This document shows positions 1,420 to 32,506 of a stretch of DNA of 43,767 nucleotides, piece after piece (within the stretch, counting starts at the first letter, position 1; each line of letters starts with the position of its first letter). The notes under the pieces were generated by a model that worked only from the letters and a program-made list of their open reading frames with translations, had not been told where the DNA came from and did not search any database. The DNA comes from Candidatus Uhrbacteria bacterium (GTDB lineage: Bacteria > Patescibacteriota > Patescibacteriia > UBA9934 > GWF2-40-263), in assembly GCA_043808565.1 (NCBI GenBank), contig JAZDEQ010000016.1, forward strand, positions 1-43,767. The letters run 5' to 3'. The position numbers were made by a program, and so were the translations under genes.

Positions 1420-2322
1420 ATGAACATCGGAATTCTCACCTTTGGCCGGCCGCCAACTCGCGAAACTGAACCACCGTATGAATCCAAGCGCTTGTTTGAA
1501 GCGGCCAAAGCCCGCGGTCATGAAGCGCGAGTTTTTTGCGAACCTTTTTTTGCTTTTCGGGAAATCAATGGTCAGCGAGAAATTTTTTATGATAACCAAC
1601 CCATGCCGCCATGCGATGTAATTATTGCTCGCACTAATTTAATTGAGGATCAAGGGCTCCACTCAGCCACCGTCGACCTTCTTTATACGGCTGGTTATAA
1701 AATTATTAATAGCGAAACAGTTGACACTTTAACTACTAAAAATAAACTGACTCGCAAACTTTTAATGTCTCAAGCGGCTATTCCCATGCCACGCTCGACA
1801 ATTATTCGAGATATCAGCACGGCCACGATTGAGGCGGAAAAAATCGGTTTTCCGATTATTTTAAAAACCCCAAATGGTTCTGGTGGTCGTGGCGTTTTTT
1901 TGGCGGAAAATTTAAAAACTCTTTTACCAATTGTTGACTACCTCACGGCTGGTCAAAAAATTCCGGTTCTTCTCGAGGAATTTATTAAAGAAGCTGAAGG
2001 TAAAGATCTTCGGGCTTTTGTGGTTGGTGATAAAATTATCGCGGCCATGGAACGCGCCGCCAAACTTGGTGATGTTCGTTCCAACATCCACGCTGGCGGC
2101 CAAGGTTATCTAGTCGAATTAACGGCCGAAGAAAAAGATCTAGCCATTCGCGCCGCTCGAGCCGTGGGTTTAGAAATTGCTGGCGTAGATATTATTCGCT
2201 CTAGTCGTGGACCACTAATTCTCGAGGTTAATGCTCGCCCTGGTTTTGAAGGCTTGGAAGCGGCTACTGGTGTTGATGTGGCTGGTGGTATAATTGAGTA
2301 TGTTACGAATTACGAAAAGTAA
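1420..2322 (+). CDS. rimK: RimK-family ATP-grasp alpha-L-glutamate ligase
   Basis: MNIGILT start; KTPNGSGGRGV, LEEFI, DLRAFVVG, RSNIHAGG, GVDIIRS, LEVNARPGFEG motifs. Start moved from 985 to ATG 1420. Confidence 0.9.
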   Translation: MNIGILTFGRPPTRETEPPYESKRLFEAAKARGHEARVFCEPFFAFREINGQREIFYDNQPMPPCDVIIARTNLIEDQGLHSATVDLLYTAGYKIINSETVDTLTTKNKLTRKLLMSQAAIPMPRSTIIRDISTATIEAEKIGFPIILKTPNGSGGRGVFLAENLKTLLPIVDYLTAGQKIPVLLEEFIKEAEGKDLRAFVVGDKIIAAMERAAKLGDVRSNIHAGGQGYLVELTAEEKDLAIRAARAVGLEIAGVDIIRSSRGPLILEVNARPGFEGLEAATGVDVAGGIIEYVTNYEK

Positions 2323-2416
2323 CGAATATACGAATCTTTGAACTCGGTAAATTTGTAACTATGCCTTCAAACAAAAAACCAAATTCGTATATTCGGCACT
2401 TTTCGTAATTCGTAAC
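2302..2416. repeat. MITE-like palindromic element, family A copy 1 (115 bp; inverted relative to copies 2 and 5)
   Basis: 34-bp TIR GTTACGAATTACGAAAAGT(AA/GC)CGAATATACGAAT; supplies the last codons and stop of rimK and ends 4 nt before the folD ATG. Confidence 0.95.
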
Positions 2417-2420
2417 AAAT

Positions 2421-3269
2421 ATGCGCCTCTTGGACGGCAAAACTTTAGCCAAAAAAATTCGCGCGACCGTAAAAAACGAAGTCGCTAGTCTGGCTACCAA
2501 ACCTGGCCTGGCCGTTATTTTGGTTGGCAGTGATCCAGCTTCGCATCTTTACGTTTCTTTAAAAGAAAAAGCTTGCTTGACGGCGGGTATAAATTTCACT
2601 AAATATCTTTTCCTGGCCCAAACAACTGAAGCTGAATTACTACAAAAAATTAATGAGCTAAATCAAGATCAAAAAATCAACGGTATTTTGGTTCAACTTC
2701 CCTTACCCAACCAAAACGCCGATAAAATTATTGCCGCCATTAATCCCAACAAAGACGTTGATGGTTTTCATCCAGAAAATCTGCGGCGACTTGAAGCTAA
2801 CGAAACCTGTTTGGTTTCACCAGTCGTTTTGGGGGTCATGGAACTTTTAAAAAAAACTGGTGAATCATTAAATAATAAAAAAGCTGTTCTGGTAATGAGC
2901 CAAATTTTTGCTCGACCATTTACAGCTGTTTTTAATCAACAAAAAATCCAGACAGAAATAGTTTCAGCTGATGACCCGAATATTTTTGCTAAAACAAAAA
3001 ACAGCGATATTTTAATTACTGCTGTTGGTCGGCCAAATTTAATTGTCAGTCAAGGATTAAAAAACGGAGCTATTGTTATTGACATTGGAACAACTCACCT
3101 CAATGGTAAAGTAGTTGGCGATGTTGACATATCTTCGATTGAATCGACGGACGGTTGGCTTACTCCTGTTCCGGGCGGGGTGGGACCAATGACGGTGGCT
3201 TTACTCCTGCGAAACGTTTTGGCTGCTTCAAAGCAACATAACTTGCCACCAACAGCGCCAAAAAATTAA
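2421..3269 (+). CDS. folD: Bifunctional methylenetetrahydrofolate dehydrogenase/cyclohydrolase
   Basis: LLDGK, PGLAVILVG, GILVQLPLP, KDVDGFHP, TPVPGGVGPMTV motifs. Confidence 0.97.
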   Translation: MRLLDGKTLAKKIRATVKNEVASLATKPGLAVILVGSDPASHLYVSLKEKACLTAGINFTKYLFLAQTTEAELLQKINELNQDQKINGILVQLPLPNQNADKIIAAINPNKDVDGFHPENLRRLEANETCLVSPVVLGVMELLKKTGESLNNKKAVLVMSQIFARPFTAVFNQQKIQTEIVSADDPNIFAKTKNSDILITAVGRPNLIVSQGLKNGAIVIDIGTTHLNGKVVGDVDISSIESTDGWLTPVPGGVGPMTVALLLRNVLAASKQHNLPPTAPKN

Positions 3270-3594
3270 ATGATTCGGCTGTATAAGCCGAAGTCGAAAA
3301 AGCCTCCAGGGCTCCAATGTTTGGGGTAATAGCCAAAACCAACATACTGCCCAAAAAATCCAAAGCGATCCAAACGATCGCGTTTTTTATTCTTTGAGAA
3401 AGTTTAATAGCAAAACCTGGACGGAAATACAGCCAGCCAAAAAACAGTGTAGCCAACGGAACATTAACCATGGCCATCATGAGAAAAGCATTATTATAAT
3501 CAAAAATCATCCAAGCCGAAACCGCCAACAAGTTAAGGCCGTAGATAAAAGCAAAGTTTATTAGCCAGAAAAGAAAAAGACGTTTGAAGTGCAT
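3160..3594 (-). CDS. Small hypothetical membrane protein (about 4 TM helices)
   Basis: 144-aa hydrophobic ORF; its 3' end overlaps folD convergently by 110 bp. Confidence 0.7.
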   Translation of the reverse strand: MHFKRLFLFWLINFAFIYGLNLLAVSAWMIFDYNNAFLMMAMVNVPLATLFFGWLYFRPGFAIKLSQRIKNAIVWIALDFLGSMLVLAITPNIGALEAFSTSAYTAESFNFLALLVASYVALKQPKRFAGVKPPSLVPPRPEQE

Positions 3595-3604
3595 ATTTTA
3601 TTTT

Positions 3605-3766
3605 GTTACGAATTACGAAAAGTGCCGAATATACGAATTGGGTTTTTTATCGAAAGGCACAAAGATAACAAACTGATCTAGAGGAATATTTTTTCATCTT
3701 CCTTTGTCATCATTATAACTTTTGAACTCCAAATTCGTATATTCGTTACTTTTCGTAATTCGTAAC
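3605..3766. repeat. Family A element copy 2 (162 bp)
   Basis: Same 34-bp TIRs and related internal sequence. Confidence 0.95.
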
Positions 3767-3770
3767 GTCT

Positions 3771-4928
3771 TTATAAACTAAATATTGTTTGTACAATACC
3801 ACCGACAAAAATCATCACTAACAACCAAACTAAAGGCCGAGGAACATTTAAACAGTGGTGGGTTTTGAAAAAAACATTATGACGCATTTTTTCATACACG
3901 GCAATCACCAAAAGACCAATCAGGCCGCCAAAAACTCCGCCTAAAAAACCAACCAAACCAACGAATTCTTTTATACCCAAAAATAAAAGACCAACAGGAA
4001 CAAAAGAGGCCAAGGCCCAGGAAATTTTTTGCGGCCAATGATAATCCAAATGAAAAATGTTTTGGGTTTCCATGCTGACAACAGAAAAAATAGAAATTAC
4101 CGTAATCAAACCAAATAAAGAACCGATCACGGCAAAAGTTTGACCAAATACCGAAGCCAAACCATCAAAAGCCGCTTGAGTGGTAGCCGAGCCAGTTATG
4201 CCGACCACGGCAAAAGTAAAAATCGCGTAAAGAAATAAAATAATTATTTGTCCGGTAAGAATCGCGTGGGCTAAATTTTTCTCCCGACCCTTATTTGATA
4301 AAACATCTTTCATTTCCGGAATAACTCCTAAACCTGAAAAAGCAAAAAAAATCACACCGTAAGGAATAAACCAATTAGCTAAATGAAAAGAAGAAATATT
4401 CGACCAGTCAATTGACGGTAAAGCCACTAGGGTAATAAAGGCAAAAAGAAACAGTAAAGCGCAAATAATAAAAAATTCTATTTTAGCTAATTTCTTAAGA
4501 CCGCGAAAAGTTAGCGCTGAAACTAAGACGGCAACAAAAATTTGGTAAATAATAATTGGCCCGCCAAAAATTGGTGAAACTAAACGAAATAAAAAATCCC
4601 CGCCAATCAACATTTGAGCCAACATGGCTCCCCAAACATAAAAAATAAAAATAATAGCCGCAAAATGCCCAGGAATTTTACCCAAATATTTTTTAACATA
4701 CCCAGCCAGTCGGTGTTTGCCGCTAGTTTGGGAAACTACTTCGGCATACATGAGATTTAAAAACAACAACAGAAAACCAATTATCAAAAGAAAAACCAAA
4801 CCCAAAGCCCAACCGCTTTGAGCAAAAGCAAATGGCAAACCAAAAACGCCCACGCCAACCACCCCACCAATCATGGTGCCAACCGCCCGCCACCAAGGCC
4901 AATCAATATGTCCAGGTAATTTTTTCAT
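3771..4928 (-). CDS. Aromatic amino acid / APC-superfamily permease (Trp_Tyr_perm-like)
   Basis: GTMIGGVVGVGVFGLPFAFAQSG and YGVIFFAFSG.GVIPEM motifs, about 11 TM helices. Start placed at ATG 4928 downstream of an extended -10. Confidence 0.88.
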   Translation of the reverse strand: MKKLPGHIDWPWWRAVGTMIGGVVGVGVFGLPFAFAQSGWALGLVFLLIIGFLLLFLNLMYAEVVSQTSGKHRLAGYVKKYLGKIPGHFAAIIFIFYVWGAMLAQMLIGGDFLFRLVSPIFGGPIIIYQIFVAVLVSALTFRGLKKLAKIEFFIICALLFLFAFITLVALPSIDWSNISSFHLANWFIPYGVIFFAFSGLGVIPEMKDVLSNKGREKNLAHAILTGQIIILFLYAIFTFAVVGITGSATTQAAFDGLASVFGQTFAVIGSLFGLITVISIFSVVSMETQNIFHLDYHWPQKISWALASFVPVGLLFLGIKEFVGLVGFLGGVFGGLIGLLVIAVYEKMRHNVFFKTHHCLNVPRPLVWLLVMIFVGGIVQTIFSL

Positions 4929-4934
4929 GTCATC

Positions 4935-4943
4935 ATTATAGCA
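4935..4943 (-). promoter_or_regulatory. Extended -10 promoter (TGcTATAAT), probably leaderless transcript
   Basis: Minus strand reads TGCTATAAT-GATGAC-ATG. Confidence 0.7.
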
Positions 4944-4957
4944 CAAATATTTATTTG

Positions 4958-5128
4958 GTTACGAATTACGAAAAGTGCCGAATATACGAATTTGGGTTTT
5001 ATTGAAAGACGAAAAGGTGACCAATGGAACGAGAAGAATATTTTTTCATCTTCCTTTTGTCACCTCTGCCACCATTGTAACCTTTAAGTCAAAAATTCGT
5101 ATATTCGGCACTTTTCGTAATTCGTAAC
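4958..5128. repeat. Family A element copy 3 (171 bp)
   Basis: Perfect 34-bp TIRs; lies between the divergent permease and dnaB genes. Confidence 0.95.
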
Positions 5129-5204
5129 AGCCTGATTTTGTACCCACAGTTTGCTCACAAGCTAACCTTGAAAACAGTTGCCATTGAGGTAAGATAGCCG
5201 TGCT

Positions 5205-6668
5205 ATGGCTGAACAAAGAATTCCACCCCAAAACCATGAAGCCGAACAGTGTTTGTTGGGCTGTCTTTTGATTGATCCTGAAGCTTTTTATAAAGTTGCT
5301 GACATTGCCCAAAGCGATGATTTTTATCGCGAAAGTCATCGAGCAATTTACGAGGCCATGATTGATCTTAATACCAAACACGAACCAATCGATCTACTCA
5401 CCCTTGGCAACCGTTTAGAAGAACTGGGGAAAATCCAAATCTGCGGTGGCCGTACCTATCTTGTAGAATTGGCCAACTCGGTTACGACAGCCGGCAATGT
5501 GGCTCACTACGCGCAAATCGTTCAAAAAAAATCCACCCTTCGCCGTCTGCTCTCGGCCGCCGGTGATATTATGGAAATGGGTTTTAATGAAGCTGAGGAC
5601 GTTGACGTGGTTATCGACAGTGCCGAGCGTAGTTTATTTGCTGTCTCCCAAAAATTTCTCCGCTCAACTTTTATTGATATTAAAAATGTTTTGTCCGAAG
5701 CTTTTGAACGTATTGATGAGCTTCATCGCAATCGCGGCCAGTTGCGCGGCGTACCCACGGGTTTTACTGAACTTGATAATCTCATGGCCGGTCTACAAAA
5801 ATCTGATTTGGTAATTTTAGCGGCTAGGCCTTCAGTTGGTAAAACTACCTTGGCCATGGATATTGCCCGCCATGTCGGCATCAAATGTAAAATTCCGGTT
5901 GGTCTTTTTTCTCTAGAAATGTCCAAAGAACAACTAGTTGATCGTATGATCTCATCTGAAGCTGGCGTGGACTTGTGGAAATTGCGCACCGGTCGGCTTT
6001 CAGAAAATAATGAGGATTTTCCGCGCATTGGCAATGCTTTAGGCAAACTTTCTGAGGCGCCAATTTTTATTGATGATTCGCCAACCCTTAATGTTATGCA
6101 AATTCGCGCTAAAGCCCGACGTTTGCAGGCCGAAAAAGGTTTGGGATTAATTATTGTCGATTATCTTCAACTTATTGAGAGTCGCAGTAAGGGCAATTCT
6201 GATAATCGAGTTCAAGAGGTTTCAGAAATTAGTCGTTCGCTCAAACAAGTAGCTCGCGAACTTAATATTCCGGTTCTGGCCTTGTCTCAATTGTCACGTA
6301 CGGTTGAACAAAGCAAACCAGCCATTCCCAAACTTTCTCACTTGCGCGATTCTGGTTCCATTGAACAGGATGCTGACGTGGTACTTTTCATTTATCGCAA
6401 GGCTGCTGACATGAACTATCGTCAAGAAGATTTATCACCTGAAGAAAAAAATCTGGCCGAAATCTACATTGCCAAACATCGCAATGGCCCGACAGGTATG
6501 ATAAGATTATTCTTCGATGGTCAACGCACCTGTTTTCGCAATTTAGAAATGCGCCGTTCTATGGCACCTAATCCCAATCAGCCTGATAATAATTTTCCCA
6601 GTCTCCCCACCCCACCACCGCCTATGTCCGCTCCGCCGCCAATCGATTCAATGAATAATGAATTTTAA
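5205..6668 (+). CDS. dnaB: Replicative DNA helicase
   Basis: PPQNHEAEQ, AARPSVGKT, FSLEMS, IIVDYLQL, LSQLSR, LRDSGSIEQDAD, KHRNGPTG motifs; no intein. Confidence 0.98.
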   Translation: MAEQRIPPQNHEAEQCLLGCLLIDPEAFYKVADIAQSDDFYRESHRAIYEAMIDLNTKHEPIDLLTLGNRLEELGKIQICGGRTYLVELANSVTTAGNVAHYAQIVQKKSTLRRLLSAAGDIMEMGFNEAEDVDVVIDSAERSLFAVSQKFLRSTFIDIKNVLSEAFERIDELHRNRGQLRGVPTGFTELDNLMAGLQKSDLVILAARPSVGKTTLAMDIARHVGIKCKIPVGLFSLEMSKEQLVDRMISSEAGVDLWKLRTGRLSENNEDFPRIGNALGKLSEAPIFIDDSPTLNVMQIRAKARRLQAEKGLGLIIVDYLQLIESRSKGNSDNRVQEVSEISRSLKQVARELNIPVLALSQLSRTVEQSKPAIPKLSHLRDSGSIEQDADVVLFIYRKAADMNYRQEDLSPEEKNLAEIYIAKHRNGPTGMIRLFFDGQRTCFRNLEMRRSMAPNPNQPDNNFPSLPTPPPPMSAPPPIDSMNNEF

Positions 6669-6802
6669 AAATTCCAATTTCTCTTCGAGAGCCTGAGAGC
6701 TCCTCAGAGCCTCGAACGGCCAAATTCCAATTTCCAAAAAGGAAAATCTTTAAAAAAATTAATAACCATTTTGGAATTTGGTATTTAAATATTGGAAATT
6801 CC
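6669..6802. repeat. Heptamer-based imperfect palindrome, family B copy 1 (AATTCCA/AATTTCC...TTGGAAT)
   Basis: Fills the dnaB-ybaB gap; contains an extra hairpin at 6684-6716; core related to the copies at 19003 and 36462. Confidence 0.7.
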
Positions 6803-6811
6803 AACAAAACT

Positions 6812-7111
6812 ATGTTCAACAAAATCAAAGCTATCAAAGACATGCGCACCCAAGCCAAAAAACTCCAAAACGGCTTGGCCGAAATTACGGCCGAAGGCGA
6901 AGCTGCCTGGGGCAAGGTTAAAATCAAAATCGACGGCAACCAACAAATTCTTGAGGTTAAAATCGATGAAGAATTATTAAAAGACAAAAATAAACTCCAA
7001 GACGCTATCAAAGAAGCCACCAATGATGCCGTCAAAAAAATCCAACGCCAAATGGCTTTTAAAATGAAAGAACTGGGCGGCTTAGATGCTCTCAAAAATC
7101 TTGGACTCTAA
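6812..7111 (+). CDS. ybaB: YbaB/EbfC-family nucleoid-associated protein
   Basis: 99 aa; GKVKIKIDGNQQILEVKIDE...LQDAIKEATNDA; upstream of recR. Confidence 0.92.
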   Translation: MFNKIKAIKDMRTQAKKLQNGLAEITAEGEAAWGKVKIKIDGNQQILEVKIDEELLKDKNKLQDAIKEATNDAVKKIQRQMAFKMKELGGLDALKNLGL

Positions 7112-7118
7112 ATATAGG

Positions 7119-7298
7119 GTTACGAATTACGAAAAGTACCGAATATACGAATGTGATTTTTATTGAAATACACAAAGACGACAAAGGCTACAAGGATGTG
7201 GTAAGAGTATTTTTTTCATTTTTGTTTTATCACCTTTATCACCATTGTAATCTTTGAACCCCAAATTCGTATATTCGGCACTTTTCGTAATTCGTAAC
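7119..7298. repeat. Family A element copy 4 (180 bp)
   Basis: 34-bp TIRs; fills the ybaB-recR gap and ends 4 nt before the recR ATG. Confidence 0.95.
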
Positions 7299-7302
7299 AA
7301 AT

Positions 7303-7899
7303 ATGCGGCGCTTTCCTGAACCAATTCAAAACCTGGCCGCGGCTTTTACCCGGCTGCCTGGCGTGGGGCCCAAAACTGCCCTGCGCTATGTTTTTGCTTT
7401 ACTACAATTACCCAAAGAAGAATTAACTCAAACTGCTCGGCTCATCCACGAGCTGGGCGAAAAAGTTCGGGTTTGTCCGAGTTGCTTCAGCTACACCCAA
7501 AACGAAATTTGCGACCTTTGTGCTGATCCGCGTCGCGACTCGGCGCTTCTTTGTTTAGTCGAAACCTCACGCGACATTTCTACCATCGAAGCCACTGGCG
7601 CCTATCAAGGCAAATATTTTGTCTTGGGCGGACTTTTAAATCCCATCGAAGGCCTGACCCCGGAAGTTTTACGTGTTCAACCGCTTTTCAAAAAATTACG
7701 TGAAGACAAAAATATTAAAGAAATCATTCTGGCTTTTTCACCCGATGTCCACGGCGAAACCACCATGATGTACTTGGCCAAACAACTTATACCTTTTGAA
7801 AAACAACTTACCCGTTTAGCTCGCGGCCTACCAGCCGGCGCCAGCCTCGAGTTTGCCGATGAAATCACTTTGGGCGCCGCCTTCAAAGGCCGCAATTAA
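7303..7899 (+). CDS. recR: Recombination mediator RecR
   Basis: LPGVGPKTA HhH, CxxC...CxxC zinc finger, TOPRIM domain (YFVLGG, RLARGLP). Confidence 0.97.
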   Translation: MRRFPEPIQNLAAAFTRLPGVGPKTALRYVFALLQLPKEELTQTARLIHELGEKVRVCPSCFSYTQNEICDLCADPRRDSALLCLVETSRDISTIEATGAYQGKYFVLGGLLNPIEGLTPEVLRVQPLFKKLREDKNIKEIILAFSPDVHGETTMMYLAKQLIPFEKQLTRLARGLPAGASLEFADEITLGAAFKGRN

Positions 7900-7937
7900 A
7901 AAAATACTCGCGGTAAATTAACTACGAGTATTTTTTT
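7898..7937. terminator. Bidirectional intrinsic terminator
   Basis: A7-TACTCG...CGAGTA-T7 hairpin between convergent genes. Confidence 0.75.
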
Positions 7938-7946
7938 ATTATTAGT

Positions 7947-12185: not shown

Positions 12186-12191
12186 ATAATT

Positions 12192-12509: not shown

Positions 12510-12512
12510 ATT

Positions 12513-12857: not shown

Positions 12858-12872
12858 ATGATTTTGTTAATG

Positions 12873-12917
12873 GGTTGCTTCGTCCGCGTCGTATTAGCAC
12901 TGCTCCTCGCAATGACG
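12873..12917. repeat. Half copy of family C (…CTCCTCGCAATGACG) palindromic element
   Basis: Shares GCTCCTCGCAATGACG with 29655-29670 and 24064-24078. Confidence 0.8.
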
Positions 12918-12961
12918 AAGATTGAGTTATTTTTTGAAAATTGTGGATAACTCATTATATC

Positions 12962-14146: not shown

Positions 14147-14357
14147 CTTCAGGCCCCGCGGCCAGAAAGAGCTACTCCGCATGCTCGTCTGGTGCGGGGC
14201 CTCTTTCTATTTTTGTAGATCCTCTCCTCTAACTCCTCCCCTACATTAGGATTAAGGGGAGGAGGAAGTTGGTTGGTTATTTTTTTGAGGTTTAAAAAAT
14301 AAGGCCAAAATGTGCTTACAAATTTTTATCACATTTTGGCATTTCCCTCTCGCTCTG

Positions 14358-14438
14358 CCCCTCTCTCTTGTCTCTCCCCCGGGGAGAGAGGATTAAATTA
14401 AGCCCCTCTCCCCGGGGGAGAGGTTGGGTGAGGGGTTG
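14358..14438. repeat. Family D C/T-rich double-hairpin element, copy 1 (empty site)
   Basis: CCCCTCTCTCTTGTCTCTCCCCCGGGGAGAGAGGATTAAATTAAGCCCCTCTCCCCGGGGGAGAGGTTGGGTGAGGGG; near-identical copy at 30487-30597. Confidence 0.9.
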
Positions 14439-19002: not shown

Positions 19003-19093
19003 AATGTCTAATGTCTAATTTCCAATGTCTAATGATGGTAGTCAAAAATTCTTAAAGAAATATTAACCGTCCTTCATTAGACATTAGAAATTC
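19003..19093. repeat. Family B heptamer palindrome copy 2 (AATGTCT…/…ATTAGACATTAG)
   Basis: Shares AAATTCTTAAAGAAATA and TCCTTCATTAGACATT with 36462-36556. Confidence 0.85.
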
Positions 19094-19096
19094 CTA

Positions 19097-19987
19097 CTAA
19101 TTAGGCATTAAAATTTTCTCAACCACTCGGAGTTTGGCACTGCGGGAACGGGGATTGCTTTTGACCTCCTCCTCGGTGGGCACGATAACGTGTTTATTAA
19201 TTATTTTTATTTCTTTTTGATTGAATTTTTTGAAAACCTTTTTTACTAAACCATCTTCTAAAGAATGAAAGGTAATAACTGCTAATCGTCCGCCGGGTTT
19301 TAAAATTTTAATTATTTCAGGTAAAGCTTTTTCTAATTCTTCAAGTTCATTATTAACCGTGATTCGTAAGGCTTGAAAAACTTTAGTCGCCGGATGGGTT
19401 TTCCCGCGACGCGGTGTCACGGTTTCAATCAATTCAGATAATTCTGTAGTGGTAGAAAATTCTTTTTGATGTCTGGCTTGACCAATGGCTCGAGCTAATT
19501 TTTTGGCGTTTTTTTCTTCACCATAAACCAAGAAAATTCGCGCCAATTCTATTTCTGACCAATGATTAATAATCTCAGTCGCCGTTAATTCACCGTTGGG
19601 ATCATACCTCATGTCAAGTGGTCCTTCAGTTTGGAAAGAAAATCCGCGGGTTGAATCAGCCACATGGACTGAGCTGAAACCCAAGTCCAAAAGCACGGCA
19701 GCAGCGGGAACAAATCCTTGATCATAAGCGAGTTTATTCAAGTTAAGATAAGAATCATTTGCGAAGACCACACGATCACCAAAGTCAACCAAATTTTTTT
19801 GAGCTAAAACTATTTGTCGCGGATCGCGATCAATGGCTAAAAGCCGACCATCTGGCGAAATTTTCGCCAAAATAATTTTGGCATGACCACCAAGACCAAC
19901 CGTGCCATCAATCACCGCATCGCCGTGCCGAAGATTAAGGAGCTCGATGGTTTCCTTTAACATTACTGGGGTGTGACTGAATGACAT
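19097..19987 (-). CDS. rsmH: 16S rRNA m4C1402 methyltransferase
   Basis: HTPVM, DGTVGLGGHA, DLGFSS, RGFSF, PLDMR, HPATKVFQALRI, TFHSLED, NPRSRSAKLR motifs. Confidence 0.97.
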   Translation of the reverse strand: MSFSHTPVMLKETIELLNLRHGDAVIDGTVGLGGHAKIILAKISPDGRLLAIDRDPRQIVLAQKNLVDFGDRVVFANDSYLNLNKLAYDQGFVPAAAVLLDLGFSSVHVADSTRGFSFQTEGPLDMRYDPNGELTATEIINHWSEIELARIFLVYGEEKNAKKLARAIGQARHQKEFSTTTELSELIETVTPRRGKTHPATKVFQALRITVNNELEELEKALPEIIKILKPGGRLAVITFHSLEDGLVKKVFKKFNQKEIKIINKHVIVPTEEEVKSNPRSRSAKLRVVEKILMPN

Positions 19988-19995
19988 AACAACAA

Positions 19996-20088
19996 GTAAA
20001 ACGTAGAACGTAGAAGTCGTAGAAAGCGTAGATTTTTTGTTTTATATTTTTACAAATCTACGTCTTCTACGATTTCTACGTTTTCTAC
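19996..20088. repeat. 9-mer-unit palindrome (CGTAGAAnn / nnTTCTACG)
   Basis: Fills the mraZ-rsmH gap; one arm recurs at 30355-30390. Confidence 0.85.
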
Positions 20089-20664: not shown

Positions 20665-20706
20665 TTTTTAAAACAAAAGCGAGCATCGGACATTTCAGTC
20701 CAATCC

Positions 20707-20928: not shown

Positions 20929-20976
20929 ACTCTTACTTCTAGTACCAAAAATCAGCTAATTTACTATTTCATTTTT

Positions 20977-22092: not shown

Positions 22093-22094
22093 AA

Positions 22095-24020: not shown

Positions 24021-24037
24021 AAAATCGGAAGTTACTG

Positions 24038-24078
24038 GATTGCCACGTCGTTCCGAGGCGTCACTCCTCGCAATGACG
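24038..24078. repeat. Half copy of family C element
   Basis: GATTGCCACGTCG…CTCCTCGCAATGACG, as in 29599-29670. Confidence 0.85.
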
Positions 24079-24142
24079 GAGTGGTCGTGGATTGGCCGAA
24101 GAAAAAAACGAAAGAAGAGGGTCAAATCAGACCCTCTTCAGA

Positions 24143-27100
24143 TTATTCATTAATTGTCATCGCTGTTTCAATTGAATGATTGTTATCGTTCGGATCACGA
24201 ACCGAACGAATGTAGACTGGTTCGGCCATATAAGTACCTGGTGTTACAACACGAGCATAATAAGTCAGAGTGTAAGGCTCGCACCAATCACGACCAAACT
24301 CTTCGCTGTTGCTGACAAAGAAAGTCACGCGTTGGCTTTCAGCGACCGAAGGATAATTCACACACTTTTCTTCCCACAACCAATTTCCAACCGGGGTCAC
24401 CAGAGACAAACCAGACGGCAGAACATCAGTAATTTCAAAAGTCTCAAAAACATTTTTATCTGGCTCAGGAATTACTTCTTCTTTGAGTGGAACATCCCAA
24501 AGCGAATCACCTTGAGTTGTCTGTTCCGGACCAGTGTTATCAATAATCAAGTTTGGATTTTTAACTACCGGAACTTTAAATTTCACTTCGACCTTAACCA
24601 AATCGCCAGCCTTAATCGCTTGACCGGGCTGACCGCCAACAACTGAATAGCTTCGAGCTAAACCAAGTTTCTCATTAACCACCGCATTGTCATCAACCAA
24701 CGGCGAGTCAAAACGACTAACCGCCACCACACTGCCCTTTTGAACTTCAGGATTAAACGCAACTAATTCATCTGGCGATAACGCCAGGGTTACCGTTTCA
24801 TTATTTTCCAAAGTCAATTCCCGACGCTCACCCTCAAGCGTATAGGCAACTTTTACCTCACTGTCTTTCAAAGACTTAATCGCTTCTTTAATAAACAAAG
24901 CTTGATCAAGCACCAAAAGCGTACTGCCTTGGTATTGATTAGTCACATAATCATGCAAAGCGTCACGATCACTTTCACGTAAAGCCGCGGCCAAAATGGC
25001 CATTAAAGCCGTTTGTTCACCTTGGGTTTCAATATCATCGGCCGGCAAATAGGCATAACCAAAATCTTTATTCACGCCCTTAATCAAGTCTCGATAAATC
25101 GCTCGTGCTCCTTCATCAGCGCCAGAAAAATGCAAAGCTAAAGACAAGAATAATTTTTCATTTGTCGACAAATCATTTTCTGCGGTTAATCGCTGGACTT
25201 CAGATAAAACTGGTTCGCCCAGAGCGGCCATGGCGGCATAGGCCTTAATGGCTTCTTCACGGCCAACTTCCATGCCACTTTGTCGACTGTAGTAAAGCAT
25301 GTTACCAAAATAATTTTTAAGGCTATCTTGATCAAAAGGTGTACCGCCAGCCAGAGCTACCTTGACCGAAGTATCAAAATCCGTGTCACCGTAAGGCAAA
25401 AGTCTGACGCCCTGATCTTGATAAGATGAAACCGAAAATTCTGAATCAGAATTTTGTTCACCAAATTTTTCATTCAAAATTTTTGTGGCCACGGCTTGGG
25501 TCATAATTTCGTCAGCTCGGTTGCCAAAACTGCCAGCCAAATAACTTAACTCCGAATAATATTTTCCAGCTCCACCATCAATAAAAGTCACTTTGGTTAA
25601 ACCATTGGCCGAACCGGAAATTTTTTCTTGACCACCAAGTATTACACTGGAAACTACTGGCTTCACCAAATACGAAGGCAGAATTTCAATCGACCGAGTG
25701 ATCGTATCGGTTAAATTACCAGACGAACCAGTAATCGTTATCTCGTGTTGGCCTTCAGAAAGTTTTGGTAAGGTTAAGCCAACAGTTTTGGCGACCGTGG
25801 AAATTTCTTTTTTCTCAATATCAGCATCAGGAATCGAAATGGTATATTCGACCGGATCATTCAAACCAACGTTAACTCCAGCACTACGGATGAGAACCGT
25901 TGGTTGATCATCAACTAAATAATTTTCCCGCATAACTGGCACAACAAAGAATGGCATGGAAGCCTCAAGATTTATTTTAATGTCACCGGCCATTTTTTCT
26001 TGAGAATTTAAGGCTTGGGCCGTGACTCGCCAGGAAGTAATATTATCAGGCAGTTTGAAAGAATAATTCGCCCGACCATTTTTGTCGGTTTCAATAGTGA
26101 CAAAATCAGCAGTGTCTTTAAACAAAGCTCGTCCACGTTCGCCGCCACCACCACCTTCGGCCAGACTGGTGGTCGCAAAGTCTTTAATGTTTTCACTAAC
26201 CTTGGTCATCAAAACTCCAGAACTAACATTTTGATAAAGATCGCTCAACGGATGAACATCTTCACCCACCAAGGCATAAAAAGCTTCGTCAACAACATTT
26301 AAATTGACTTCAGCGACTACTGGCTGATCGTCTTTATTAGTCACGACAACGTTTAAACTAACATCTTCACCAGGTCGATAAGTTTCCTTGTCAGCCTTAA
26401 CTTCAACTTTTAATTCTTTTTCTGAATTGTCATACCAAACGTAAAGACCGTTAGCCGAACCTGATCCACCGCCATACCGATCATTAACTTGAGCATAAGC
26501 TTGACCATCAAAATACACTCCATAAACTTCAAGATTAGGAACCAAAGCTTGGTCAAAATTAAAAGAATAAGCACTACTTTTCATCACAGAAATCTGTTGA
26601 ATGCCTTGACGGGCTTGGAAGTAAAGAAAATTACCATTTTCTCCTAAAGAAAAGGGGGCGTCTTCTTTAAAAACCTGTAAATGAACCGGGTCGTTTATTT
26701 TATAACCGGGAAAGCCTGGGTTATTTTCTGCTTCTAAATTTTTCAATTGTAATGATTTGTCGTCTTTAGCTTCAATACCCCGATTCCAAAGATAGGCATC
26801 TAATTTATCGGTCTTTCCCGCTTCATCACTGGCTCGTAAAATAACTCGATAACTAGCTTCAGGGTTGGCTGAAAAAGTATAAAATGCTTCGCCGTTATTA
26901 TCAGTAATTAAAGAAAAATCTTTAATTTTATTTTCTATTCGATCGTATTGATATTGAGTGACAGTTTCCTTACGAATAAAATCATATGTTGTGCCTGATT
27001 CTGTTTTAACATAAGTAATTTCTCGAAGCTCGCCATTAATCAATTGACTCGGCTTAACAATGGGAGCAAAAATTTCGGCATCATAAGAATCAATTGCTTG

Positions 27101-29440
27101 AACATTTCTGGTGGTTACTTTAATTGTCCCAACCCCATCTTTGATTCCGGATGCGTCCCAATCTTCCTGAAGATAAACCTTAGGGCCAAAAACCATTAGG
27201 TTTGTGCTAGCCTGAATATTAGCCTCTTCGGCTCGGGCGGGATAAACATTTAACCAATAAGAATTTGGGTAACGGTAATCGATTGCCGAATAAGAAATCA
27301 TCACATTACCTCGGGCATTACCCGCCGCATCAAGAGTTAGTTCTTGATTGCCAGCTCCAGTTTCCACCACCACTGGTAAACCGTTAACCGGAGTGCCGTC
27401 GAAAAACTCTCCGTGAATCATATAGCCGACACTCTCGCCGGCAAAGACGGCGTCTTTGTCTGTTTCAATTGAAAGTGAAAAAGCTGGTTTAACATATTCA
27501 GAAACTGAAACACCTCGTGATCTAATGATTTCGTCATCAACTTTTACTTGAACATCATAATAACCAGCTGGCACAGCCTCGAGAGATAATTCGCCCTCAA
27601 AAGTTCCTTGATCAGAAACCTCAATCACTGTTTCGTCAAAAATCAAACGATTTTGATCCGAAAAATCACAACTAAATGGCGAGCACCAACCATTTTCACC
27701 AATAATCACCCGAACGGTTTTTGGTTTAGTGCCATTTGCACGATTTTCTACATAACCCCAAAGTTTAATAGTATCGTTTGGTTTATACATTGGTCGATCG
27801 GTATAAAGATATGACCAATTTTGTTCGTATGGTTGAACCAGTGGTGTGCTTGTCTGATTTTCAAAATTACGAAAATCATAATTACCATCTAGTGGTAAAA
27901 TAATCGCTTCAGAACCAATTCGAACTTCCAATAAATCACGTTGAGAATATTCTTCAGAAGATAAATCGGCCGGTGTATTTAAAGAAGCTAAACCATTTTC
28001 ATCAGTTGTTTTTAAAGTCTCATCAAAATCAATAAATTTAACACTGGTGCCGGCCAAAGGACCATGAGTTTCTGCACTATTCACCCAAACCAAGGTCTGA
28101 TTGATGGCTTTGGCAGCATAAGCTGTGACCTGACTCGACTCGATAAGCGCAAAATGTTTTTGTCCGTCGTAAGTAAAAACCGCGACATAATAACCTCGAG
28201 GTAGTGGGGCTGGGAACAAAAGATAATCACGATATTCGCTTTGAACACGACTGGCTTCAAAAGAGGCTGTCACCGGCATTTTCGCTAAATCAACCACCCC
28301 TTCGGCTGAAGTATAGGCTGTCCAATCAGCATCACGAGTTTTTTTATAGGCAACTAAATATTGTTGATAGTCAGAAGTCTCGGCCGCGGAAATAAATTGA
28401 TGAACTTCAACTTTAACCGGCGGATCTGGTTGGCCATCATTGCGCCAAATAGAATAATTTACCGCCACCGTGTCATTAGGTGTAGTAATAATATATTTGT
28501 CATCGAGCCAAAAAGAAAAGCCGGGGTTCGTATCGCCTTGATTGGTTTCAAAAGTAAAAGTGTAATCATTGCCCAAAGTTTCATCACTCCCTTTTAAGCC
28601 AAGCGCGCCAGATAAAGTGGCTGTATAAACGGTTTTGGTTTTTAATTTTTCCTCAGGCACAAAAACAAAAGTTTTACGAAACTGTTCTACATGACCTTTG
28701 ACTGCCGGCAAAATCGTAAAAGCTTTTTCGAAATCTTTTAAATTAATGTTTTCGTAATTAAAACTTATCTCAATGCCAGTTTCAATTGGCACTTCGCCTT
28801 GATGATTGCCTGGTAAAGTTCCAACGATACGAAAAGGACTCTTAACTTGAAAAGCCCAATTATATGGACGCTCAACCGTTTCTCCGGTTAGTGAAGTGGT
28901 CTCAGAGTTTAAAGAAAAAGTTACAACTTTAGCCACGGGTAAAGTTTCGTTAAAAGCAATTCGTACTTTATTAGCCGAAACTTGTTGCAGATCGTAATCA
29001 ACCCCAGTGTTGGTGACTAGATTTTTTTGAACAAAATTTGTGTCGATTTTATCTTTACTTTCTAAAAGAAAAGCAGAATTATTTTCCACGCCAAGCGAAT
29101 CAGCCGCTTCGGCAACTAAAGTAAAATTATCCTGGGCATAAACGGTTTTAATGCCAAAAAACGGTTGGAAAATTGTGGTGGTAATAACAGCGACCACCAG
29201 AACAGTTAAGCCAAAAGCGGCCCATTTGGCACCAAGTCTTTCCTTATCGAAAAAAGGCAAAGACCAACGAAATGTCTTAGACATAGAAACGGCCTGCCGG
29301 GCGGCTTGTAAGCGGGCAAAAAGCGCCTCTTTAAAGCCAGGCCGCGGCATAATATTTACAGATTTAAGGTGACGAGAAAAAACCTCGTCTAATTCTGTAA
29401 ACGAACCGTCGGTTTTTTTATTACGATTAAAAGGAAACAT
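24143..29440 (-). CDS. Membrane-anchored alpha-2-macroglobulin-family protein with N-terminal Ig-like (Big_5-like) domains; no thioester motif
   Basis: YLYTDRPMYKP (MG2), EYVKP, YRPGE..VVDEA, FKDTA.F..LPDNITSWRVTA (A2M), DVLPSGL, YYARVVTPG.Y.AEP; no CxEQ anywhere. Confidence 0.9.
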   Translation of the reverse strand: MFPFNRNKKTDGSFTELDEVFSRHLKSVNIMPRPGFKEALFARLQAARQAVSMSKTFRWSLPFFDKERLGAKWAAFGLTVLVVAVITTTIFQPFFGIKTVYAQDNFTLVAEAADSLGVENNSAFLLESKDKIDTNFVQKNLVTNTGVDYDLQQVSANKVRIAFNETLPVAKVVTFSLNSETTSLTGETVERPYNWAFQVKSPFRIVGTLPGNHQGEVPIETGIEISFNYENINLKDFEKAFTILPAVKGHVEQFRKTFVFVPEEKLKTKTVYTATLSGALGLKGSDETLGNDYTFTFETNQGDTNPGFSFWLDDKYIITTPNDTVAVNYSIWRNDGQPDPPVKVEVHQFISAAETSDYQQYLVAYKKTRDADWTAYTSAEGVVDLAKMPVTASFEASRVQSEYRDYLLFPAPLPRGYYVAVFTYDGQKHFALIESSQVTAYAAKAINQTLVWVNSAETHGPLAGTSVKFIDFDETLKTTDENGLASLNTPADLSSEEYSQRDLLEVRIGSEAIILPLDGNYDFRNFENQTSTPLVQPYEQNWSYLYTDRPMYKPNDTIKLWGYVENRANGTKPKTVRVIIGENGWCSPFSCDFSDQNRLIFDETVIEVSDQGTFEGELSLEAVPAGYYDVQVKVDDEIIRSRGVSVSEYVKPAFSLSIETDKDAVFAGESVGYMIHGEFFDGTPVNGLPVVVETGAGNQELTLDAAGNARGNVMISYSAIDYRYPNSYWLNVYPARAEEANIQASTNLMVFGPKVYLQEDWDASGIKDGVGTIKVTTRNVQAIDSYDAEIFAPIVKPSQLINGELREITYVKTESGTTYDFIRKETVTQYQYDRIENKIKDFSLITDNNGEAFYTFSANPEASYRVILRASDEAGKTDKLDAYLWNRGIEAKDDKSLQLKNLEAENNPGFPGYKINDPVHLQVFKEDAPFSLGENGNFLYFQARQGIQQISVMKSSAYSFNFDQALVPNLEVYGVYFDGQAYAQVNDRYGGGSGSANGLYVWYDNSEKELKVEVKADKETYRPGEDVSLNVVVTNKDDQPVVAEVNLNVVDEAFYALVGEDVHPLSDLYQNVSSGVLMTKVSENIKDFATTSLAEGGGGGERGRALFKDTADFVTIETDKNGRANYSFKLPDNITSWRVTAQALNSQEKMAGDIKINLEASMPFFVVPVMRENYLVDDQPTVLIRSAGVNVGLNDPVEYTISIPDADIEKKEISTVAKTVGLTLPKLSEGQHEITITGSSGNLTDTITRSIEILPSYLVKPVVSSVILGGQEKISGSANGLTKVTFIDGGAGKYYSELSYLAGSFGNRADEIMTQAVATKILNEKFGEQNSDSEFSVSSYQDQGVRLLPYGDTDFDTSVKVALAGGTPFDQDSLKNYFGNMLYYSRQSGMEVGREEAIKAYAAMAALGEPVLSEVQRLTAENDLSTNEKLFLSLALHFSGADEGARAIYRDLIKGVNKDFGYAYLPADDIETQGEQTALMAILAAALRESDRDALHDYVTNQYQGSTLLVLDQALFIKEAIKSLKDSEVKVAYTLEGERRELTLENNETVTLALSPDELVAFNPEVQKGSVVAVSRFDSPLVDDNAVVNEKLGLARSYSVVGGQPGQAIKAGDLVKVEVKFKVPVVKNPNLIIDNTGPEQTTQGDSLWDVPLKEEVIPEPDKNVFETFEITDVLPSGLSLVTPVGNWLWEEKCVNYPSVAESQRVTFFVSNSEEFGRDWCEPYTLTYYARVVTPGTYMAEPVYIRSVRDPNDNNHSIETAMTINE

Positions 29441-29442
29441 AT

Positions 29443-29483
29443 GTTACGAATTACGAATTTTTCCGAAATCACGAATCAACGAA
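29443..29483. repeat. Degenerate single arm of family A
   Basis: GTTACGAATTACGAA… starts 2 nt from the A2M start codon. Confidence 0.7.
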
Positions 29484-29530
29484 TTATTATGAATTTATTT
29501 TTTAAACTTAGACGGCGGTTCTCTGCCCGC

Positions 29531-29670
29531 CGTCATTGCGAGGAGCTCTGAGTTCGTAAGGCGACGCGGCAATCTAGTAATATCCAGACGCGGTTATTAG
29601 ATTGCCACGTCGCTCCACCTTCGCTAAAGCTACGGCGGACACGTCGGCGGCCTCGCTCCTCGCAATGACG
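29531..29670. repeat. Complete family C palindromic element with nested mini-hairpin
   Basis: 16-bp perfect TIR CGTCATTGCGAGGAGC; inner IR GCGACGCGGCAATCTA/TAGATTGCCACGTCGC. Confidence 0.9.
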
Positions 29671-29687
29671 AATAGTCAATAACGTTT

Positions 29688-30275
29688 TTATTTAAAACTC
29701 ATCAATTTATCACTCGCTAACTTTTCGCATTTACTTAAAGCCCGATGTAAAATTACGCCGGCATTGTTGGGGGTACACTTCAGGGTTTGGGCGATTTCTT
29801 CATACGAAGCTTCGGCATAATATTTCATGGTAATAACCAAACGTTCGCGCTCGGGTAAATTTTCTAAAACTCTTTCTAATTCTTCGCCAAGAATATTTTG
29901 ATCGGTTGACTCAATCACATTTTGCCGACTATCAGCCGGATCAAAAGATTTTTCTTCATCATCTAAAGAAGAAGCCTGGTGTTTCATTCGATAATGATCA
30001 GTAATCGTGTTGGTGGCAATACGATAAAGCCAGGCTGAAAATGATGGTCGCAAAACAAAGGTTTGGCGTTTAGCAAAAGCCTTTAAAAAAACTTCGGAAA
30101 CAATATCTTCGGCCGTGTGTTGATGGATAACACGACGAATGACAAAAGTATAAATCTTTTGAAAGTAACGTTCGTAAAGTTGACTAAAAGCCTGATCATC
30201 GCCCTTACTCATCCGAACCGCTAAATCATCATCATTTTCGGTTTCGCTTGCTGTTTCGTTTCGTAAATTTCCCAA
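29688..30275 (-). CDS. ECF (sigma-70 group 4) RNA polymerase sigma factor; start uncertain
   Basis: AFSQLYERY, AEDIVSEVF, FSAWLYRIATN, LPERERLVI, SYEEIA...LHRA motifs. TTG 30275 chosen over the ORF start at 30437. Confidence 0.92.
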   Translation of the reverse strand: MGNLRNETASETENDDDLAVRMSKGDDQAFSQLYERYFQKIYTFVIRRVIHQHTAEDIVSEVFLKAFAKRQTFVLRPSFSAWLYRIATNTITDHYRMKHQASSLDDEEKSFDPADSRQNVIESTDQNILGEELERVLENLPERERLVITMKYYAEASYEEIAQTLKCTPNNAGVILHRALSKCEKLASDKLMSFK

Positions 30276-30486
30276 TAATTCCGTAGCAAAAAAACAAAAA
30301 CGCCGCCAGACCTCTATTAGAGATAACGGTTTAATGATTGAATTATTACTGGATGTAGAAATCGTAGAAAGCGTAGAAAACGTAGATTTTTTGTTAAACA
30401 CGAAGAGTAAGCCATCATTCGCTCTTGTGTTAATCATCCTATCAAAAAATGCTTGGACTGGCTAATTATTTTTCTCACTCGTTAAC

Positions 30487-30597
30487 CCCCTCTCTCTTAT
30501 CTCTCCCCCGGGGAGAGAAGATTAAATTAAGCCCCTTTCCCTGGGGGAGAGGTTGGCCTGCCCGTCCGTAGCCCAGCGAAGGCGGGGTGAGGGGTTG
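30487..30597. repeat. Family D element copy 2 carrying a 30-bp insertion at 30557-30586
   Basis: Aligns to 14358-14438 apart from the insert and about 4 substitutions. Confidence 0.9.
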
Positions 30598-30602
30598 AGA
30601 GC

Positions 30603-32339
30603 CTAATTATTTTTCTCAATAAATTTTAAATAACAGCCATGACAAAAAACCCGACGATTAGGATATTGCTGACAACCAGTGACAGTAATTTCTTTTTGAC
30701 ATTCAGCGCAAGCGCGTTTTTCAAAAACACTTTGTTGACCGCTCATGGCCACTTCGTTTAAACGACGAATAAAGTGAGTATTGGGTGGGGCGATTCGCAG
30801 GGCGCGATAATGATCTAATTCCGGTTTAAGAAAACTAAAAGTCCGCTTGGCTTGTTCATCAAAAATTGGCACACCAATCCAATCATCAGTTAAATCATCA
30901 ATGGAATCAGGAATTTCGCTTCGCTGGCGTGGGGTTGAAGTTAGACGATCGATGCCCGTAGCACTTTCATCATTAGGATCAAAAACTAAACCACCAATTT
31001 TTTCTAATTCAGCCAGTATGGCCCCACAATAAATAACCGCTCCGCCTTCAGGCACATAAGTTGTGGCCAATGAAACCGGTAAATAATGACCGTACTCGCC
31101 CCGATTTAACAACTCCATTTTTATTTCATCCAAATATTTAAAATATTCTTCTTCAGTATATTGCTTATTTAAAATGCAAAACTTTTTATTTTTCAAACCA
31201 ATACAGCCAAAACAATCCTGACAATCAGTACACATTAAACAATATTCGCAATTCTCTAAACGAAAAGAGCGATAGGAAAATTTAGTGCGGCTAGAATTAG
31301 GACATGAGACGCACATGTAAACATCAGTATTATCAATTAAACCCCAACCATAAGCGCAACCCTGAGAATTACCGTACATCCAAGCGCTGTGCCAATTATC
31401 GACCGGGTTATCGGCTGAATCAAAACATTCCGTGCAACGAACAGCATTAGATAAATAATCACCGCTAGATTGTTCGGTATTAACATTAAAATTTTCTGGC
31501 CAAATACCTTGAGACAAAAGTAAATCATCAAACTTTTTTTGCCAAAATTCAGCTTCACTTCGTTTGCCAAGATCAATGGCTGCGAGACGTTTTTCATATT
31601 CATCCTTGGTTAATTGTTCGTTGAAAAACAAGTACTCACCATTTCGTCGATTGGTCGCGCCAAAACAATTTCGGCAATTACGACAATCAAAAAGAAAAGT
31701 CGAATTTAAACAATCGTACGAAGCTCGAACAAACCGACAGCGGTGCAAACGCTGACCGTGCAAGACATTGTGAGATTCAGTAATATTCGAACCAAGCCAA
31801 ACCACTGATGAATCTGAGATACCAAAACCGCCGGCCGAAAAAAATGACCGTTCTGACTTGCAAGCAAAAGTAAAATAACTATTGCGATCACCAAAAGAAA
31901 ATAAAGTAATGGAATTTTCCGGCTCAACTCGATTAAAAGTTGCCAAAAGCGGCACGCGGAGCTCAAGCGCTCGCAGTTGTTCAAAAAATGGCCGAGCCAA
32001 ATCCAAATTTTCAAAAGTATTAGAAAAATCTTTAGCGTGCCATTCTTTATCTGGCAAAACTCGCACTCCCGAAGCTGGATGATGAAAACTTAACACCGGC
32101 TTGCCAGTTTCAAAATGTTTATTCCACCAAAACTGAAAGCCACAATCATAATAAGCCATTTGTTTCCAAATAGTATTGGGTGAAAATTTAATCGGTGGTA
32201 CGTTAAATTTTTTGTAGATGTCGATTTCAGTTTGTTGCAACAGCCACTTTTCACCCATGAGTTCACAGGTCCGCTCACCGGATTTTAATTCAGTGAGGAT
32301 TTTGGCGACGGCCGCGTCGTAGTTGGGGGTTTTAAACAT
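30603..32339 (-). CDS. Cys-rich repeat hypothetical protein, paralog 1 (family common in CPR genomes)
   Basis: CxxC-rich blocks; CFGCIGLKNKKFCILNKQYTEEEY; GEYG motif. Confidence 0.85.
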   Translation of the reverse strand: MFKTPNYDAAVAKILTELKSGERTCELMGEKWLLQQTEIDIYKKFNVPPIKFSPNTIWKQMAYYDCGFQFWWNKHFETGKPVLSFHHPASGVRVLPDKEWHAKDFSNTFENLDLARPFFEQLRALELRVPLLATFNRVEPENSITLFSFGDRNSYFTFACKSERSFFSAGGFGISDSSVVWLGSNITESHNVLHGQRLHRCRFVRASYDCLNSTFLFDCRNCRNCFGATNRRNGEYLFFNEQLTKDEYEKRLAAIDLGKRSEAEFWQKKFDDLLLSQGIWPENFNVNTEQSSGDYLSNAVRCTECFDSADNPVDNWHSAWMYGNSQGCAYGWGLIDNTDVYMCVSCPNSSRTKFSYRSFRLENCEYCLMCTDCQDCFGCIGLKNKKFCILNKQYTEEEYFKYLDEIKMELLNRGEYGHYLPVSLATTYVPEGGAVIYCGAILAELEKIGGLVFDPNDESATGIDRLTSTPRQRSEIPDSIDDLTDDWIGVPIFDEQAKRTFSFLKPELDHYRALRIAPPNTHFIRRLNEVAMSGQQSVFEKRACAECQKEITVTGCQQYPNRRVFCHGCYLKFIEKNN

Positions 32340-32346
32340 ATATATT

Positions 32347-32506
32347 GTTACGAATTACGAAAAGTGCCGAATATACGAATGTGGTTTTTATTGAAAAGCA
32401 CAAGGGCCACAATGGAAACACGGGGAATTTTTTTATTTTCCTTTTATCACCATTGTAACTTTTGAACTCCAAATTCGTATATTCGTTACTTTTCGTAATT
32501 TGTAAC
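32347..32506. repeat. Family A element copy 5 (160 bp)
   Basis: 34-bp TIRs; fills the gap between the two paralogs; right end nearly identical to copy 2. Confidence 0.95.

Follow-up and report, generated by a model that had tools for sequence, protein, structure and literature searches.

The stretch of DNA analysed here (the window) is a 43,767-nucleotide contig of Candidatus Uhrbacteria bacterium (JAZDEQ010000016.1, positions 1 to 43,767 of the forward strand), one of 84 contigs in a 1,165,426-bp, Patescibacteria-type genome assembly with 41% G+C (GCA_043808565.1), in which it is numbered C16. It carries five full copies of a dispersed inverted-repeat element, here termed family A. We suggest, with a probability of roughly 0.65, that family A consists of gene-less hairpin miniature copies of an inverted-repeat nuclease cassette of about 490 bp, whose one gene encodes a 129-aa protein of the GxxExxY/PDDEXK_3 type. 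We are highly confident of the observations that are joined in this reading: gene-bearing and gene-less copies have the same 34-nt arms, the elements are insertions into short spacers without target-site duplication (TSD), the family is lineage-specific and recent, and its adjacency to start codons results from the filling of gaps. That the nuclease of the cassette is also the mobilising enzyme is a further step, for which we consider the case evenly balanced.

The original prediction, made from the sequence of the window, had proposed either a non-autonomous mobile element or a structured mRNA element affecting translation or processing, and had pointed to copies enclosing an open reading frame (ORF), for example that of a small nuclease, as the possible autonomous partner. 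Such copies were found when the genome of the window (G000) was examined together with four sister species of the same genus (G001, G002, G003 and G004). In G004, family-A arms 490 bp apart enclose a single 129-aa ORF (L002:1543-1932), which matched both PF13366 PDDEXK_3 (E 1e-25, 90.8 bits against a cut-off of 22) and TIGR04256 GxxExxY (E 6e-25, 87.9 bits against a cut-off of 35). The orthologous site in G000 is a 3-nt spacer with no hairpin; thus, arms and gene arrived together at least once. G000 has two full-length copies of its own, at two loci. Contigs C21 and C47 both end in 111 bases identical to those at the starts of C5 and C17, and the right flanks of the two copies differ, with an enolase-like gene beside one and another gene beside the other.

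Matches to PF13366 numbered seven in G000, three each in G001 and G002, two in G003 and four in G004. Five of the G000 matches are intact genes, all bracketed by inverted repeats of short units. These are family-A arms on C5 and C17, A-like TACGAAT arms on C25 (25/27 complementary), ATGATT-unit arms on C6 (20/22) and CTTGATT-unit arms on C67 (18/20). The other two, on C17 and C59, are decayed genes, each with an A-like arm beside it. A-like arms lie on either side of both PF13366 genes of G003, one pair measuring 48 nt at 81% and the other 35 nt at 89% with a GTTAC end. The cassette is present in all five species, and a burst of gene-less family-A copies was seen in G000 and G004 only.

The residues D73, E83 and K85 of the cassette protein, a D...E-x-K core, are invariant or nearly so in 60 sequences. 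No sequence relative with a solved structure was found at E<=1. An AlphaFold model of the nuclease (predicted local distance difference test score 92.1) was closest in fold to Cas4 SSO0001, to lambda-exonuclease types and to the archaeal junction resolvase Hjc, and the modelled protein is a generic PD-(D/E)XK nuclease core. If family A derives from the cassette, each arm, an array of three to four ACGAA(T) units, would be recognised by the cassette-encoded nuclease, which would cut the DNA at the GTTAC termini or close to them. The move would then be finished by the host, through repair or replication of the hairpin-forming DNA, and the gene-less copies would use in trans the protein supplied by the two full-length copies.

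The 34-nt arm (GTTACGAATTACGAAAAGTGCCGAATATACGAAT) was matched ten times in the window with up to 3 mismatches, compared with no matches in 100 dinucleotide-preserving shuffles. Arms of the window elements are 34-39 nt long and 90-100% complementary within each element. Alignments agreed with the original description of the arms as built from ACGAA(T) units and conserved far above the interiors. Outside GTTAC, the left-hand flanking base is T or G and the right-hand one A or C, making the inverted repeat one base longer. The G000 contigs were searched with BLAST and nhmmer, and with a profile built from the ten window arms 90 arms were recovered at E<=1e-3 in the 1.17 Mb of the genome, forming 28 inverted pairs and leaving 34 arms unpaired. 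Several of the unpaired arms sit at contig ends or beside a decayed partner. No TSD was visible in the flanks of the 28 pairs, as had been noticed for the window copies. The regular 9-bp steps in length reported earlier are real as a series (162, 171 and 180 bp) and are composite in origin: the step from 162 to 171 bp (copies 2 and 3) is a gain of 10 and a loss of 1, and that from 171 to 180 bp (copies 3 and 4) a gain of 8 and a gain of 1. They do not extend to a genome-wide rule, as pair lengths ranged from 90 to 255 bp and included 160, 167 and 170 bp.

Across the genome the arms are nearly identical to one another and the interiors are not. Half of the pairs (14 of 28) have one long, partly self-complementary interior in common, and the interiors of the remainder are short, unrelated or nested. 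Nested repeat insertions in the hairpin centres are common, for example in C24_5750 and C81_5188. All 28 paired elements folded as long hairpins in ViennaRNA, with mononucleotide shuffles as a rough control. Single arms folded no better than shuffles (DNA z-scores 0.38 and 1.21). An Rfam scan of the window at the gathering score returned a tRNA elsewhere and no match to the elements. Three candidate features of the elements were considered and dropped. A small ORF in the long interior (minus strand, MKKYSSRS...) has ATA instead of ATG in copy 5. The arm contains a TATATT box that could belong to an outward promoter, yet there is no consistent -35 box or TG extension, and a consensus scan flagged copy 1 only. 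Finally, a strand asymmetry of G-T pairs in the arms was judged by eye only and was inconsistent with gene direction.

Inverted doublets and lone arms with variable spacers also characterise repetitive extragenic palindromic (REP) elements and their paired forms, REPINs, in the parts of the sources consulted (PMC3116915, PMC3337134). Family A could accordingly be a set of inverted doublets moved by a Y1 HUH transposase. Two candidate enzymes are present in G000: one intact IS200-type TnpA (C31:13202-13627; NF033573, 128.9 bits), and a 190-aa protein (C40:6229-6801) whose best NCBIfam match is the REP-associated tyrosine transposase (RAYT), at 55.9 bits. IS200/IS605 enzymes and RAYTs leave no TSD, which fits the family-A flanks. 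Matches of the IS200 type were likewise found in the repeat-rich species, five in G001, seven in G002, two weak or partial ones in G004 and, in G000, the strong one besides the RAYT-like gene, compared with one weak match in G003. However, the RAYT-like score lies below the curated cut-off of 80, and G003 too has a weak RAYT-like match. The nearest family-A arm is 1.6 kb from the RAYT-like gene, none is near the IS200 copy, and the flanks of the IS200 tnpA lack ACGAAT units and have no ends in common with family A. Single arms are not palindromes, as their z-scores indicate, and at least five hairpin families exist alongside one RAYT-like gene. We therefore regard mobilisation by a Y1 enzyme as improbable. 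The RAYT-like gene of G000 stands in an operon-like row of genes.

That family-A elements are insertions was evident from the sister species. Family A was found in 4 of 41 genomes (its own included), all of one genus, and in none of 36 genomes of other genera. Arms were numerous in G004 (32 match rows, 85-100% identity), matches in G001 and G002 were few and weak, and G003 had none. Five full copies exist in the window at the coordinates and lengths first reported (115, 162, 171, 180 and 160 bp), and four of them do lie within 5 kb. Synteny from folD to recR is kept in all four relatives, and G003 was empty at 5 of the 5 junctions compared.

Copy 1 (2302..2416, 115 bp, short interior) lies between an upstream gene, whose stop codon (2320-2322) falls within the left arm, and folD (ATG at 2421). 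As DNA it folds into a hairpin of -31.7 kcal/mol (z -10 compared with shuffles). In G003 the upstream gene overlaps folD, and the junction has no element. Copy 2 (3605..3766, 162 bp, long interior) has a minus-strand start codon (3592-3594) 10 nt beyond its left arm and a stop codon of the same strand (3771-3773) 4 nt beyond its right arm; short spacers without an element occur here in G002 and G003 (11 nt in G003). Copy 3 (4958..5128, 171 bp), with 36-nt arms that are 100% complementary, fills the divergent gap between a permease-like gene and dnaB, which is empty and about 40 nt long in G003 and G001. Copy 4 (7119..7298, 180 bp) separates the ybaB stop codon (7109-7111) from the recR ATG (7303). 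These codons are 1 nt apart in G003, so that the comparison of orthologous gaps proposed with the original prediction did reveal an empty ybaB-recR site; other unit families stand there in G001, G002 and G004. The observation that two of these places next to an ATG read identically was also correct, CGTAACAAATATGCG being present at both folD and recR. Copy 5 (32347..32506, 160 bp) has a minus-strand start codon 7 nt from its left arm, and on its other side the next minus-strand gene ends.

The comparison covered five window junctions and four family-A sites of G004. In G000 the latter are represented by the 3-nt spacer described above, a short empty gap, a different hairpin and an element of a GTTAC-TAATCT family. 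Filled and empty sites differ by the element and a few A/T bases. Family-A elements are insertions into very short A/T-rich gene spacers, and the family is lineage-specific and recently amplified. Except where they are empty, G001, G002 and G004 hold other inverted-repeat families at the window junctions, including CGTAGAA, GGAGT-type and TTACGGAT arrays and GC-rich nested hairpins. Possible causes of this repeated occupancy are site preference, tolerance limited to few spacers, and turnover by nesting or deletion. Together, the absence of TSD, the empty orthologous sites and the ORF-bearing partner support the earlier suggestion of a non-autonomous element.

The original prediction had also stressed that the elements end a few nucleotides from an ATG, where a ribosome-binding site would normally be. 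This adjacency was assessed genome-wide in 82 strong arms (E<=1e-5), an arm being counted when a long ORF began no more than 20 nt beyond it. The adjacency is real, with 35 of the 82 arms start-adjacent (31 of them to ATG, at distances of 3-20 nt), but it is matched by adjacency to stop codons: 31 arms adjoined a stop codon only, lying at most 16 nt outside the arm or within it, 14 adjoined neither and 2 lay at a contig edge. Where an element wholly fills a spacer, its arms touch whichever gene end is there. Since the same junctions are nearly gapless in G003, start-codon adjacency is a consequence of insertion into very short spacers and is not evidence for a role like that of a ribosome-binding site.

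A host function, with the arms acting as regulator-binding arrays or the hairpin as a signal for mRNA processing, termination or translation at gene starts, would account for the 35 arms that have a start codon within 20 nt and lack an intervening Shine-Dalgarno sequence. Every element folds into a long hairpin, and those within operons, such as the one between ybaB and recR, are presumably transcribed. However, a conserved regulatory role is contradicted because the sites are empty in G003 (5/5) and their occupants change to other families elsewhere. The long interior has no consistent orientation relative to the adjacent start codon, and there was neither an Rfam match nor a consistent outward promoter in the consensus scan. 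With stop codons adjoined about as often as start codons, the structured mRNA or translation element of the original prediction was not supported, and we consider a host function very improbable. An incidental effect of the insertions on the expression of downstream genes is possible.

Two promoter-like sequences were noted at the divergent gap of copy 3. For the permease-like gene (window 4928-4957, minus strand), TGCTATAAT is followed after 6 nt by the ATG and has the look of an extended -10 element; judged from its sequence, it looks like the promoter of a leaderless mRNA of this gene. The dnaB gene is preceded by TTGAAA-16-TAAGAT, ending 10 nt before the ATG. Short-leader or leaderless genes may be common here.

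The association of such proteins with unit arrays is not confined to this genus. A search of species-representative genomes with five of the proteins yielded 524 relatives, and the best 80 of these 524 loci, which came from Bacteroidota, Patescibacteria groups, Chloroflexota, Gemmatimonadota, Fibrobacterota and others, were tested for flanking inverted repeats. Enough flank was available at 75 of the 80, and the best bracketing inverted repeat was scored with +1 for a match and -2 for a mismatch. The median score among these best loci was 13, with at least 16 in 27 of the 75 and at least 20 in 16 of the 75; 263 shifted control positions at the same loci had a median of 8 and none reached 16. 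The flanking arms across phyla were again arrays of short units, and the type of unit tracked the protein tree. Units in the clade of the family-A protein were ACGAAT, AACGAA and ACGGAA, those in a second clade were CGCGGA, GCAGAC, GCGGAT and CGCTAAT, and those in a clade of 41 rows were AGGATT, TGATT and ATGATT. This agreement of unit and clade is consistent with recognition of the units by the protein.

We tentatively extend the reading to other members of the protein family. The GxxExxY/PDDEXK_3 proteins may be the enzymes that serve a class of mobile elements widespread in prokaryotes and as yet undescribed, with ends made of unit arrays read by the nuclease, TSD-free insertion into spacers and bursts of gene-less hairpins, and with several unit families competing for the same junctions in this genus; we rate this generalisation somewhat below an even chance. 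The literature searched yielded no account of GxxExxY genes lying between unit arrays, nor of their gene-less copies. In the section consulted of PMC3424549, PF13366 is tabulated as 'Unknown', and the corresponding part of PMC8934634 holds a single incidental mention of GxxExxY.

Several points weigh against the derivation of family A from the nuclease cassette. Of about 45 family-A elements in G000, only 2 contain the gene. When the long interior of the gene-less copies was aligned with the ends of the full-length element, no clear similarity emerged, and the weak alignment scores did not support an origin of this interior by simple internal deletion of that element. G003, with two bracketed cassettes, lacks any family-A match and has just 2 long hairpins in the 60 kb sampled; the presence of the gene does not predict amplification. 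The same junctions hold different families in different species, which implies strong site preference or turnover. The relatives in the cross-phylum survey share labels, so the agreement of clade and unit is not an independent test. We know of no activity for any GxxExxY protein, and a 129-aa hydrolytic nuclease alone cannot explain integration.

Some of these points are those expected if the hairpins are primary and are spread or kept by other means. The GxxExxY gene would then be a homing-type parasite that inserts centrally, the arms or hairpin would be its recognition site, and the gene-less copies would be unoccupied targets. The gene is always central between the arms, other repeats commonly nest in hairpin centres, gene-less copies far outnumber gene-bearing ones, and no derivation of the gene-less interior from the full-length element can be recognised. 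Nevertheless, no other mobiliser is associated with the arms, both G003 cassettes are armed in a genome where no family-A copy was found, and the site of the G004 full-length element is in G000 a bare 3-nt spacer instead of a hairpin. We therefore consider a homing parasite unlikely and prefer the derivation of family A from the cassette.

[quoted passage not shown] Like those elements, as described in the part consulted of a review (PMC10969869), family-A copies are small, gene-less, multi-copy, intergenic and hairpin-forming, with empty sites in relatives. They have terminal inverted repeats and no ORF, they are dispersed, and they are polymorphic for presence and absence. The gene-bearing partner and putative mobiliser, found at two loci in G000 and one in G004, has the same termini. 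Unlike MITEs, family A has no TSD, its arms are arrays of 6-7-nt units, and its interiors are not all homologous. The partner encodes a 129-aa protein of PD-(D/E)XK fold only, and no DDE, serine, tyrosine or HUH transposase.

The likeness to the REPIN/RAYT system lies in the extragenic doublets and lone arms, the restriction to a lineage, the lack of TSD and the single-copy RAYT-like gene (Bertels and Rainey 2011, PMC3116915, in the portion consulted). Family A differs in its non-palindromic arms, in a RAYT-like gene that is unflanked by repeats and shared by several families, and in that the gene enclosed by its arms is GxxExxY. In Geobacter bemidjiensis, families of palindromic and short direct repeats are distributed non-randomly in intergenic regions, occupying 12% of gaps; in 31% of the occupied gaps several sequences lie together (PMC2996986). 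The comparison with these repeats is one of text and not of sequence, and in the portion of that report consulted no link to a nuclease gene is drawn.

The termini of family A are also distinct in arrangement from integron attC sites, though no search aimed at an integrase was made. An attC site has an inverse core and then a core site (RYYYAAC ... GTTRRRY) and is found at cassette boundaries next to an integrase. Family-A termini have the opposite arrangement, GTTAC...GTAAC, and the flanking genes are syntenic housekeeping genes.

Under this reading, a large protein family of unassigned function (PF13366/TIGR04256), which spans Bacteroidota to Patescibacteria, acquires a role that can be tested. 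If true, it would explain common intergenic hairpin repeats that fragment metagenome assemblies. The presence of about 217 long hairpins within gene pairs that would otherwise overlap or be tightly coupled, ybaB-recR for example, in a reduced 1.17-Mb genome raises the question of how downstream genes are expressed, folD and recR behind a 34-bp stem among them. Should the units form a simple recognition code, pairs of protein and unit would be of practical interest as programmable DNA binders.

The 217 long hairpin elements of G000 correspond to 18.6 per 100 kb, compared with the 2 in the 60 kb sampled from G003. When they were clustered, family A was the largest group with 32 members, followed by families of 11, 9, 7 and 6. 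Many contigs (C5, C17, C21, C47, C63, C64, C66, C71, C75, C79, C81 and C82) start or stop inside family-A elements, and these repeats are a main cause of assembly breaks in G000. On C6 (34694-36677), family-A arms 2 kb apart surround inner GGAGT-family arms and two ORFs (317 and 212 aa). Neither ORF matched a Pfam family at the cut-off or was an obvious transposase, and the arrangement may represent a composite element or one that carries cargo.

A multi-copy gene family of about 231 aa (MSKTPNYD...) is represented in the window from 32339 downward and by paralogues on C63, C64, C71 and C79. These paralogues have a family-A element at the same upstream position as copy 5. Since they keep the element at that position, some family-A copies have spread by segmental duplication, not by insertion. 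A repeat pair (31142-31251 and 33055-33164) was noted together with this gene family.

In species-representative genomes, the exact 34-nt arm pattern gave no matches, in a collection that may omit genomes close to that of the window. An 18-mer search of these genomes returned 28 loci, only 6 of which had an arm match of at least 35 nt, and about 17 chance matches were estimated. Full-length family-A arm matches were noted at two loci (L139 and L149) of a record labelled uncultured Gammaproteobacteria (SRP329715_co1_47), which could be a mis-binned Patescibacteria contig or reflect horizontal spread.

In addition to the full copies, the original prediction listed one family-A arm at 29443. An unpaired arm is indeed present there (29443..29484, plus strand), 2 nt from the start codon of a minus-strand gene, with the sequence GTTACGAATTACGAAT... 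followed by CCGAAATCACGAATCAACGAAT, and no partner arm was found for it. It matched the family-A profile only weakly (E 0.027), however, and its inner half resembles a small sister family (cluster family 10) with CCGAAATCACGAATCAACGAAT arms. A GC-rich hairpin, unrelated to this arm, lies after it (29526-29675).

Further hairpin families are represented in the window. The dnaB-ybaB gap (6670-6806) contains another inverted-repeat element, with AATTCCAAT-type units, ending 6 nt before the ybaB ATG; G003 has no element in this gap, and G001, G002 and G004 have other hairpins there. Other families were located at 19010-19102 and 36462-36554, at 20009-20041 and 30354-30395, at 14342-14427 and 30471-30556, and at 29526-29675. 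Among them, AATGTCTAAT units account for 11 hairpins in the whole genome, CGTAGAA 9-nt arrays for 9 and a CTCTCCCCCGGGGAGAG hairpin for 3; the GC-rich CGTCATTGCGAGGAGC hairpin also belongs here, and its relatives are often nested within other elements.

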